In this document: piece after piece, positions 18,281 through 31,545 of the stretch
How positions within the stretch are numbered: position 1 is the first letter of the stretch
Layout: each line of letters opens with the position of its first letter
From: a virus
Lineage: Duplodnaviria > Caudoviricetes
Strand: one strand, 5' to 3'
Virus record (IMG/VR): IMGVR_UViG_3300023048_000002
Location: 96,001-160,000 of that record
Length of the DNA stretch: 64,000 nucleotides
Made by a program: the position numbers and the translations under genes
The notes under the pieces: model-generated
Told to the model about the DNA's origin: nothing
What the model saw: the letters and a program-made list of their open reading frames with translations, nothing else
Databases searched by the model: none

Positions 18281-18370
18281 TGGAGCCGCCCACAGGATTC
18301 GAACCTGCGATGTAGGTATTACCATTCTTGCTTACAAGGCAAGCCCTTTCGACCACTCAGGCAAGACGGC
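18281..18370 (-). tRNA. tRNA-Thr(TGT) with long variable arm
   Basis: CTTGC-CTTGTAA-GCAAG; 18-nt variable region. Confidence 0.8.
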
Positions 18371-18379
18371 TCATTAAAT

Positions 18380-18462
18380 TGGTGCTGGACACAGGATTCG
18401 AACCTGCAACGTGGAATACCTGATTACAAAACAGGTGCCTTCAACCATTCAGCCAATCCAGC
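18380..18462 (-). tRNA. tRNA-Thr(TGT) with enlarged variable loop
   Basis: Loop TTTGTAA; 11-nt variable region. Confidence 0.8.
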
Positions 18463-25375: not shown

Positions 25376-25450
25376 TGGTTCCCACAGTAGGAATCGGACC
25401 TACGACTATTCATTACCAATGAATTATGTTACCATTATCACTATGCGGGA
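25376..25450 (-). tRNA. tRNA-Thr(GGT)
   Basis: ATTCA-TTGGTAA-TGAAT. Confidence 0.85.
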
Positions 25451-26380: not shown

Positions 26381-26390
26381 ATATTTTTAA

Positions 26391-26471
26391 TGCCTCGTGA
26401 TGGGATCGAACCATCGACCTTTTCCTTATCTATCCTAGTAAGGAACACTACTTCCTCTGAGTTAACGAGAC
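26391..26471 (-). ncRNA. tRNA-Val-like RNA with enlarged anticodon arm, no encoded CCA
   Basis: Normal acceptor and T arms; TTCCTTA-CTAGGATAGA-TAAGGAA. Confidence 0.65.
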
Positions 26472-26477
26472 ATATTT

Positions 26478-26551
26478 TGGTAGTTCCTAACAGAATTGAA
26501 CTGTTGTCATTGCCATGTAAAAGCAAGGTTTTTCCATTAAACTAAGGAACC
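26478..26551 (-). tRNA. tRNA-Val(TAC)
   Basis: Loop TTTACAT. Confidence 0.85.
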
Positions 26552-30180: not shown

Positions 30181-30272
30181 TGGTGGTTCCTGTAGGATTC
30201 GGACCTACATCGTTCGGTTATCTGCCGATCATGTCTTATAAGGACACCGCACTACCATTGTGCTAAGGAACC
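30181..30272 (-). tRNA. tRNA-Ile(TAT) with variable arm carrying a GAT anticodon-like loop
   Basis: GTGTC-CTTATAA-GACAT; V-arm TCGG-CAGATAA-CCGA. Confidence 0.85.
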
Positions 30273-30277
30273 GTAAT

Positions 30278-30354
30278 TGGGAGTCGGTAGTAGGTAACGA
30301 ACCTACATCTGCAACTACTACCGCTGCATGTTCTACAATTGAACTACACCTATC
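30278..30354 (-). ncRNA. Degenerate tRNA-like RNA
   Basis: D arm, T arm and CCA present; mispaired acceptor; TGCAGC-GGTAGTA-GTTGCA arm. Confidence 0.55.
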
Positions 30355-30527: not shown

Positions 30528-30619
30528 TGGTGGATGTGACAGGATTTTCGCCTGTACTACTGCGGCAGGTTGCGTCATCGGCTTCCTGACGTAGTGTCTT
30601 AAACTTAACTTACACACCC
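30528..30619 (-). ncRNA. tRNA-like RNA with branched central domain
   Basis: GGGTGTG/CACATCC-ACCA; ACAGG-CGAAAAT-CCTGT; no canonical anticodon loop. Confidence 0.6.
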
Positions 30620-30635
30620 ATAACTATTTGTGGAA

Positions 30636-30768
30636 TGGTTGGAATGGTTGGAATTGAACCAACATCACTGGCCTATAAGATCGAATCGTTGTCATTTGAC
30701 CGCCTAAGCGTCTACCTAAGTAGAAACGATCTTTTGCCTAGCGCTCTACCTATTGAGCTACTATTCCA
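30636..30768 (-). ncRNA. ~133-nt tRNA-like RNA with multi-hairpin insertion replacing anticodon loop
   Basis: D arm GCTC/GAGC; T arm GTTGG-TTCAATT-CCAAC; ACCA end; three mini hairpins. Confidence 0.7.
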
Positions 30769-30780
30769 TAAAACTAAATC

Positions 30781-30855
30781 TGGCAGAGCTAACGGGAATC
30801 GGACCCGTTTCTTATCCGTGACAGGGATAAATAATAACCAATATACCATAGCTCT
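30781..30855 (-). tRNA. tRNA-Asp(GTC)
   Basis: TATCC-CTGTCAC-GGATA. Confidence 0.88.
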
Positions 30856-31094: not shown

Positions 31095-31179
31095 TGGTGG
31101 GACGCGCAGGAGTCGAACCTGCCTAGAACTTTCGTTCGCTGATTAAGAGTCAGATGCACAACCGCTATGCCAGCGTCCC
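31095..31179 (-). tRNA. tRNA-Lys(CTT) with long variable arm
   Basis: Loop CTCTTAA; V-arm GAAC-GAAA-GTTC. Confidence 0.85.
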
Positions 31180-31468: not shown

Positions 31469-31545
31469 TGGTGGTTCCTATAGGTTTCGCACCTATGACC
31501 TCACGGTTATCAGCCATGCGCTCTAACTATCTGAGCTAAGGAACC
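31469..31545 (-). tRNA. tRNA-Ile(GAT)
   Basis: CATGG-CTGATAA-CCGTG. Confidence 0.9.

Follow-up and report, generated by a model that had tools for sequence, protein, structure and literature searches.

A phage family of tRNA-Ile(UAU) genes with an extra GAU-bearing hairpin

The gene at positions 30181–30272 (minus strand) of the window, a stretch of 64,000 nucleotides that covers positions 96,001 to 160,000 of the viral record IMGVR_UViG_3300023048_000002, is a genuine tRNA-Ile(UAU). Sequence comparison places it in a large, almost entirely phage family, in which a hairpin of 3–4 bp with the 7-nt loop Y-A-G-A-U-N-R stands between the anticodon stem and a 5-nt variable loop. The best-motivated reading of this hairpin, with a probability of about 0.4, is that it serves as a surrogate GAU anticodon loop for IleRS. 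The anticodon read by the synthetase and the anticodon read by the ribosome would then be separated: the GAU loop would recruit an unadapted IleRS and UAU would decode AUA, possibly as the two arms trade places below the D stem.

Structure of the tRNA-Ile(UAU) gene

The 92-nt gene is called as tRNA-Ile(tat) by ARAGORN and scores 59.4 bits against Rfam RF00005, for which the gathering score is 29. Read 5′ to 3′ on the minus strand, it runs from the acceptor strand GGUUCCU through UA, the D arm GCAC-AAUGGUA-GUGC and G26 to the anticodon arm GUGUC-CUUAUAA-GACAU (30231–30247), whose 7-nt loop has both U33 and A37 and places the anticodon UAU at 30238–30240. The variable region, GA-UCGG-CAGAUAA-CCGA-ACGAU, is 22 nt long in place of the 4–5 nt of a class I variable loop. 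It contains the extra hairpin UCGG-CAGAUAA-CCGA at 30214–30228, with the GAU triplet at 30220–30222, and a 3′ linker ACGAU at 30209–30213, which is read as an ordinary 5-nt variable loop. The T arm GUAGG-UCCGAAU-CCUAC (30192–30208) and the acceptor strand AGGAACC follow, and then the discriminator A73 (30184) and an encoded CCA (30181–30183).

The initial annotation, made from the letters alone, had named a tRNA-Ile(UAU) with the anticodon loop CTTATAA, and this is what ARAGORN, Rfam and the sequence itself give. The proposed folding of the 22-nt region as TCGG-CAGATAA-CCGA was likewise seen, both in the sequence and in the minimum-free-energy structure, a five-arm cloverleaf (−28.7 kcal/mol, z = −2.7). 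None of the five helices is interrupted, and the D arm, with a 4-bp stem and a 7-nt loop, is of the class I type. Among the tertiary positions U8, A14, GG at 18/19 and A58 are present. Position 55, a nearly universal pseudouridine site, is C and not U in the window copy (30202), and this C is unique among 81 family representatives at that T-loop column. C55 also occurs in two other tRNAs of the window, Thr(GGU) at 25376–25450 (−) and Asp(GUC) at 30781–30855 (−), with T loops of the type GGUCCGA….

The 5 nt on the 3′ side of the hairpin resemble a complete class I variable loop, and would map onto positions 44–48 with G46 and U48. G46 and U48 of the linker are compatible with an invariant A15 and a C13–G22 pair; both A14 and A15 of the D loop are invariant in the family, as an A15–U48 pair would allow. 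Because the linker resembles a full class I variable loop and the D arm is of class I, the hairpin appears to fit an insertion at the 43/44 hinge better than it fits a class II variable arm. From the class I-like linker it would follow that both arms are joined canonically on one side, the UAU arm to the D stem through nucleotide 26 and the GAU arm to the T stem through nucleotides 44–48. The base of the hairpin is often closed by a purine–purine opposition, reminiscent of the 26–44 pair.

Like the class II tRNAs (Leu, Ser and Tyr), the phage tRNA has a hairpin of more than 10 nt between the anticodon and T stems, and ARAGORN draws it as a V arm. However, the class II V arms of the same loci have loops of 3–5 nt and a 3′ side of 1–2 nt, and they occur in tRNAs whose D stem has 3 bp and whose D loop is long, whereas the phage hairpin closes on 7 nt that resemble an anticodon loop and is followed by 5 conserved nucleotides, N-Y-G-A-U, as its 3′ linker. 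With its 7-nt hairpin loop, 5-nt linker, 4-bp D stem, 7-nt D loop and UAU anticodon, the window gene is not a class II tRNA.

An ordinary tRNA-Ile(GAU) lies nearby at 31469–31545 (−), with the anticodon arm (C)AUGG-CUGAUAA-CCGU(G). The extra hairpin had been described as nearly copying this arm; the likeness of the GAU loops stands, and identity at 11 of 15 positions makes the wording somewhat generous. The acceptor stem GGUUCCU/AGGAACC-A, said to be common to the two tRNA-Ile genes, does match at 7/7 positions in the window. A common acceptor stem was rejected as a rule of the family, the mean match being 3.16/7 over 50 loci and 2.5–2.8 in controls; the identity of the two stems is a feature of this phage and does not characterize the family.

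The 5′ acceptor strand GGUUCCU is also found on Val(UAC) at 26478–26551 (−), and the bodies are otherwise different. Similarly, the acceptor stem ACUCGUA/UACGAGU is common to the long tRNA-Ile(UAU) of Lactobacillus phage Lpa804 and to the short class I tRNA-Ile(UAU) of phages Bromius and Iacchus. The recurrence of acceptor stems suggests exchange or selection at this part of the molecule.

A family of phage tRNAs

The first homologue, recovered by blastn, was the 91-nt tRNA-Ile(tat) of phage Lpa804, in which the hairpin has the stem UCAG/CUGA, a compensatory change, and the loop CAGAUUA. Early exact-sequence patterns were too narrow and matched only this gene. IMG/VR was scanned with three broader patterns, two blind to the hairpin and one blind to the anticodon. 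The hairpin-blind scans, which specified the D arm and YUUAUA only, gave 108 loci, six of them from the bacterial genome collection: 97 had a long region, 7 a normal variable loop of 4–6 nt, and 4 were unparsed. GAU was present in about 95 of the 97 long genes, the loops being CAGAUAA (42), CAGAUUA (34), AGAUG (10) and others.

The anticodon-blind scan, which specified the hairpin loop, a YGAU linker and a generic T arm, gave at least 115 matches, and the anticodon was UAU in 115 of 115 among the matches listed. ARAGORN identified 113 of those 115 listed as tRNA-Ile(tat); the remaining two show CUUAUAC loops. Pooling the loci yielded at least 170 distinct long phage-type tRNA-Ile(UAU) sequences of the same layout. 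A hairpin loop of the form NNGAUNN was found in 164 of the 170 collected. The same loci hold 342 distinct tRNAs of other kinds with a long variable region (Ser, Leu, Tyr and a small remainder), and not one of them has such a loop; these counts indicate that the GAU hairpin is specific to UAU tRNAs. The initial annotation had made its proposal depend on conservation of GAU in this loop among homologues, and AGAU is kept in 164/170.

An alignment, A1, was made of 81 representatives with pairwise identity below 90%, and pairs were counted for the five-helix structure. The covariance model R1 was built from A1 with the window sequence included, so that the 97.7 bits scored by the window gene are inflated by its presence in the training alignment; all other tRNAs of the window score 53 bits or less. 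Elsewhere, ordinary tRNAs reach at most 60 bits and cultured family members score 79–101 bits. The window gene has the features that define the family: a UAU anticodon, the loop CAGAUAA (Y-A-G-A-U-N-R), the linker ACGAU (N-Y-G-A-U) and a high R1 score.

Covariation in the stem and conservation of the loop

Across A1, 94.8% of cells are paired in the five-helix structure, compared with 63.7% after shuffling and 41–49% when the partners are slid, and compensatory changes occur in every helix. All four pairs of the extra helix vary on both sides among the 81 representatives. The two loop-proximal pairs form in every representative and occur as 3 and 5 pair types, and the outermost pair is formed in 51/81. 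The closest homologue (L010), 84% identical and located on a 167-kb viral contig, has the hairpin stem UCCC/GGGA where the window gene has UCGG/CCGA, and these two compensatory pairs are the only difference between the hairpins.

The hairpin loop is nearly fixed. Its columns read C in 73 and U in 8 of the 81 representatives; A in 79 and G in 2; G in 80 and A in 1; A in all 81; U in 79, C in 1 and A in 1; a free column, equivalent to position 37, with U in 41, A in 31, G in 5 and C in 4; and A in 73 and G in 8. The consensus of the 3′ linker is N-Y-G-A-U, with G in 67/81, A in 73/81 and U in 80/81. The true anticodon U-A-U is invariant (81/81), and the discriminator A73 of the window gene is found in 78/81. 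At the equivalent of position 38, A occurs in 73/81 hairpin loops (90%) but in 20/81 true UAU loops (25%); real tRNA-Ile(GAU) also has A at position 38, like the hairpin loops. A check for covariation among phage homologues, which had been suggested at the outset, therefore returned a stem that covaries and a loop that is almost constant. Such a pattern indicates that the hairpin is under strong purifying selection.

Phage context and distribution

The viral record, which comes from a jumbo phage, is 171 kb long, about 49% complete, and holds 32 tRNA genes and a tmRNA-like gene; ARAGORN finds 28 of the tRNA genes in the window, on the minus strand. The tmRNA-like gene is permuted, lies in the record outside the window (G000:C1:29494-29911) and encodes the tag ANTNAFYGDYALAA. 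In its portal protein the phage matches the Xanthomonas jumbo phages XacN1 and Xoo-sp13 at 51% identity. No family member was found in XacN1, Xoo-sp13, RAS14 or RsoM2USA, where the best R1 match is 60 bits and all matches are ordinary tRNAs, and ARAGORN finds no tat anticodon in these four phages, which carry CAU tRNAs instead. Inheritance of the gene from the closest cultured relatives, the XacN1 group, thus finds no support.

ATA makes up 10.7% of the Ile codons of the phage, or 7.45 per 1000 codons. The search of the 171-kb record, itself about 49% complete, gave no other clear AUA reader, and the record holds one CAU tRNA of uncertain type. Neither TilS (PF01171) nor a class I synthetase such as IleRS (PF00133) was found in the 171-kb record, a weak piece of evidence because the record is about 49% complete.

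The carriers are diverse, with temperate Latilactobacillus phages of 35 kb at one end and jumbo phages on Gram-negative hosts at the other. Those in culture include the Lactobacillus, Levilactobacillus and Latilactobacillus phages Lpa804, LpeD, ENFP1, 3-521 and TMW 1.1393 P1 and, on Gram-negative hosts, Acinetobacter phage vB_AbaS_qsb1, about 40 Vibrio harveyi/campbellii phages and Vibrio phage henriette 12B8; Mycobacterium and Xanthomonas phages are also in the list of blast matches, by name only. The genes are annotated as plain tRNA-Ile or not at all, and a decayed copy in phage Semele is labelled tRNA-Tyr. In bacteria, the D-arm pattern matched six species genomes, three of them with the long form, and these three are Acidobacteriota MAG contigs with tRNA arrays. 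These bacterial copies were rejected as sole AUA readers: the three Acidobacteriota genomes have TilS-type matches, two above the curated cut-off and the third (G005) below it. There was no blastn match to the tRNA in E. coli genomes, and no Lactobacillus chromosome was matched by the D-arm pattern.

Charging by IleRS and a proposed role for the hairpin

AUA is the sole sense codon that bacteria read only via a dedicated modification enzyme, TilS, or an adapted IleRS. Taniguchi et al. (2013; PMC3575796) found that E. coli IleRS loses a factor of 360 in kcat/Km when the anticodon is UAU in place of LAU, that Trp905 of the enzyme stacks on the wobble base, this Trp being conserved in tilS-bearing species, and that the single change W905R improves UAU recognition. 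Arg occupies the wobble-contact site of IleRS in Mycoplasma mobile and L. casei (PMC3575796). The same study describes a UAU tRNA that misreads AUG on the E. coli ribosome, AUA and AUG not being told apart (PMC3575796). The TilS-independent reading of AUA put forward in the initial annotation follows from the UAU anticodon by established knowledge (PMC3575796), since UAU pairs with AUA and TilS is not needed. Because IleRS charges UAU poorly, a phage UAU tRNA in an ordinary host faces poor charging, and it is the approximately 360-fold disadvantage of UAU relative to LAU with the E. coli enzyme that makes the surrogate-GAU reading the best motivated.

The proposed mechanism starts from an ordinary bacterial IleRS, which recognises G34 or lysidine34 but takes U34 only with difficulty. 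The hairpin would present a surrogate GAU loop to the enzyme, the phage tRNA would thereby be charged with isoleucine in hosts whose IleRS is not adapted to UAU, and the UAU arm would then be used by the ribosome. More speculatively, the hairpin might replace the anticodon arm under the D stem while IleRS is bound; its 3′ strand runs directly into nucleotides 44–48, as that of an anticodon stem would, and it could therefore take this place. Two further features favour a surrogate loop. The hairpin loop has A at the position-38 equivalent, as in tRNA-Ile(GAU), and the anticodon mimic is found only on the tRNA whose own anticodon is a poor determinant for the synthetase.

Several features count against a surrogate loop. 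U33 is universal in real anticodon loops, whereas position ‘33’ of the hairpin loop is A in 79/81; conservation as A, beyond mere avoidance of U, could reflect another partner or some tertiary contact. The hairpin stem has 3–4 bp and not 5, so that in the swapped position GAU would lie 1–2 bp too close to the elbow. The position-37 equivalent is free, and t6A37 reportedly contributes to E. coli IleRS identity. Furthermore, class I synthetases such as IleRS bind tRNA with its variable side facing the solvent, and the hairpin could therefore reach the anticodon-binding domain only if the arms rearrange.

Lactobacillus phages offer a natural comparison. GAU has been lost from the hairpin in phage 3-521 (GGACA) and in a second copy in phage Semele (UAGAAAA). 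Decayed long copies are present in Bromius, Iacchus, Semele and Bacchae (L032–L035, at about 1500–1590), with a 5-nt ‘anticodon’ loop and the hairpin loop CAAAU, and they adjoin an intact 72-nt short class I tRNA-Ile(UAU). In Semele, LpeD and 3-521 the genes directly downstream encode HNH homing endonucleases. Loss of GAU or decay of the gene affects 3 of about 7 Lactobacillus phage lineages compared with 2/81 other representatives (Fisher p = 0.003, post hoc), a comparison of lineages that was made after seeing the data and in part on environmental sequences. Among Lactobacillus hosts, at least L. casei has an IleRS with Arg at the wobble-contact site (PMC3575796). The stricter idea that GAU loss is confined to Lactobacillus phages was rejected: one exception, L015, lies in a RaK2-like jumbo phage whose terminase is 43% identical to those of Klebsiella and E. 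coli jumbo phages, and a further case, L208, may or may not be from a Lactobacillus phage. As L015 lies outside the Lactobacillus phages, the natural experiment is not clean.

Alternative explanations for the hairpin

A second explanation, next in probability though rather unlikely, gives the hairpin a role in structure or fidelity at the hinge of the tRNA, the 43/44 junction, where its A-rich loop would dock on the tRNA body. A hinge stiffened in this way might let UAU read AUA and resist U–G wobble on AUG, and the likeness to GAU would be coincidental. The confusion of AUA and AUG by a UAU tRNA on the E. coli ribosome, as described in PMC3575796, poses a real fidelity problem, because such a tRNA cannot separate the two codons. 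Hinge residues 9–12, 23–26, 44 and 45 tune near-cognate decoding (PMC13092985), and the conserved A at ‘33’, the A residues at loop positions 2, 4 and 7, which would suit A-minor contacts, and a stem shorter than an anticodon stem would all fit a docking element. However, a hinge element demands a 1-in-64 coincidence, namely that the fixed central triplet equals the cognate major anticodon, and no covarying receptor was found. It also leaves the decay in Lactobacillus phages unexplained, as their hosts still face the AUG problem.

The hairpin may instead be a handle for some other conserved factor, such as a U34 or A37 modification enzyme, a processing enzyme or a phage protein, which is improbable. 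The conserved motif C-A-G-A-U does extend past the GAU triplet, and the hairpins that further class I tRNAs of jumbo phages bear suggest a general use of added arms; yet the loops of those remaining arms are unrelated. Moreover, the carriers span 35-kb Latilactobacillus phages and Gram-negative jumbo phages, so that the partner would have to be universal in bacteria, and we know of no universal factor except IleRS that reads GAU in a 7-nt loop.

The suggestion in the initial annotation that the arm acts as nuclease bait, a decoy or shield against host defences that target tRNAs, fared poorly and is very improbable. Phage tRNAs do counter host anticodon nucleases, and the same array holds several non-canonical tRNA-like RNAs. 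However, we are not aware of an anticodon nuclease that singles out tRNA-Ile(GAU), and the literature searched revealed none. A bait should copy the target loop including U33, whereas the hairpin has A at ‘33’ in 79/81, and it would have no need to be attached to UAU tRNAs alone (115/115 among the matches listed).

It is scarcely credible that both arms decode, with AUA read by the UAU arm and AUU/AUC by the GAU arm as the two swap under the D stem, since, although each arm has one canonical junction, A33 replaces the universal U33, the stem has only 3–4 bp and most carriers, including the window phage, also have an ordinary tRNA-Ile(GAU). Equally far-fetched is the view that the tRNA is decaying or no longer functional and that its long variable region is the scar of an insertion: the unusual C55 in the T loop of the window copy, the decayed tRNA-like sequences that adjoin the gene and the decayed copies of some Lactobacillus phages would suit it, but the window gene has five intact helices, an encoded CCA and 97.7 bits on R1 (with the window sequence in the training set), compensatory changes occur in every helix across the family, and the phage, which uses ATA at 7.45 per 1000 codons, yielded no second clear AUA reader over the 171 kb of its record.

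Comparison with known systems

Lactic acid bacteria reportedly possess a TilS-independent tRNA-Ile(UAU), and the tRNA-Ile(UAU) of M. mobile is said to be an ordinary class I tRNA. The phage tRNA resembles that of M. mobile (PMC3575796) in its A73 and in its AUA-reading UAU anticodon, which TilS cannot modify, and it faces the same two problems, charging by IleRS and discrimination between AUA and AUG. The word ‘variable’ is absent from Taniguchi 2013 (PMC3575796). In the M. mobile type the host IleRS has changed, with Arg for Trp, whereas in the phage family the tRNA itself bears the GAU hairpin and, unlike the M. mobile type, travels into hosts with a presumably unadapted IleRS.

The nev-tRNAs of nematodes and the allo-tRNAs combine class II bodies with unexpected anticodons, and nev-tRNA-Ile(UAU), which has a tRNA-Leu body and leucine identity, is charged with leucine (PMC3333845, PMC4300185, PMC5389517). 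The phage tRNA is similar in that UAU is carried on a tRNA with an extra arm, which raises the question of the charging synthetase; mischarging with Leu or Ser is possible. Unlike the nev- and allo-tRNAs, it combines A73 with a body of class I, and its extra arm mimics the anticodon of tRNA-Ile. Correspondingly, the window gene has a class I-like D arm and a V hairpin unlike the Leu, Ser and Tyr arms of the same loci, and not the body of a nev- or allo-tRNA, which derives from tRNA-Leu, tRNA-Ser or tRNA-Sec.

SerRS reads the V arm of its tRNA and AlaRS reads G3–U70. As in these systems, the synthetase identity of the phage tRNA would lie outside the anticodon used by the ribosome. In the SerRS and AlaRS systems the enzyme evolved to read another feature, whereas the phage tRNA, if the surrogate-GAU reading is right, carries a second-site copy of the anticodon determinant. 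We know of no natural case in which a second-site copy of the cognate anticodon is an identity element, and this would be the first known. If true, the surrogate-GAU reading would add a third solution to the AUA problem, residing wholly in RNA, with the synthetase determinant on a spare arm. It would explain how phages transfer an AUA reader between unrelated hosts, the device being portable and enzyme-independent, and it would supply synthetic biology with a simple design rule for orthogonal or anticodon-independent charging. Even apart from mechanism, these are five-armed tRNAs, a class with hundreds of members annotated merely as ‘tRNA-Ile’, and no published description of a GAU-bearing extra arm was found in the full-text literature searched, key reports on tRNA-Ile(UAU) of lactic acid bacteria being outside its scope.

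Other unusual tRNAs of the phage group

Extra variable-region hairpins are also found on other class I tRNAs of the window, at 18281–18370, 18380–18462, 31095–31179 and 26390–26472 (−); these are Thr(UGU) twice, Lys(CUU) and a Val(UAC) without CCA. Similarly, XacN1 (L252), Xoo-sp13 (L254) and RsoM2USA (L261) have extra hairpins on Lys, Thr, Cys, Asn, Gly and Pro tRNAs. The loops of these hairpins are GAAA or of the UAAUA type, followed by a CAUCG-like linker, and do not copy the anticodons of their own tRNAs. The addition of arms to tRNAs seems habitual in this phage group.

A 132-nt tRNA-shaped RNA at 30636–30767 (−) has acceptor, D and T arms and CCA, with an insert of approximately 62 nt and three hairpins in place of the anticodon loop. 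It was missed by ARAGORN and Rfam and was found as an R1 match only, at 31.5 bits. Because the 7 nt that immediately precede the 3′ strand of its ‘anticodon stem’ are CUUAUAG and its variable loop is UGAU, this RNA may be derived from tRNA-Ile(UAU). Two further tRNA-like elements, at 30279–30353 (−) and 30528–30619 (−), fall below the Rfam threshold with 26.8 and 25.6 bits. The former has D and T arms like those of tRNA-Ile(UAU) (GAU-GUAGG-UUCGUUA-CCUAC) and a broken acceptor stem; the latter has an intact acceptor stem with G3–U70, ACCA, the T loop CGAAAAU and a branched central domain.
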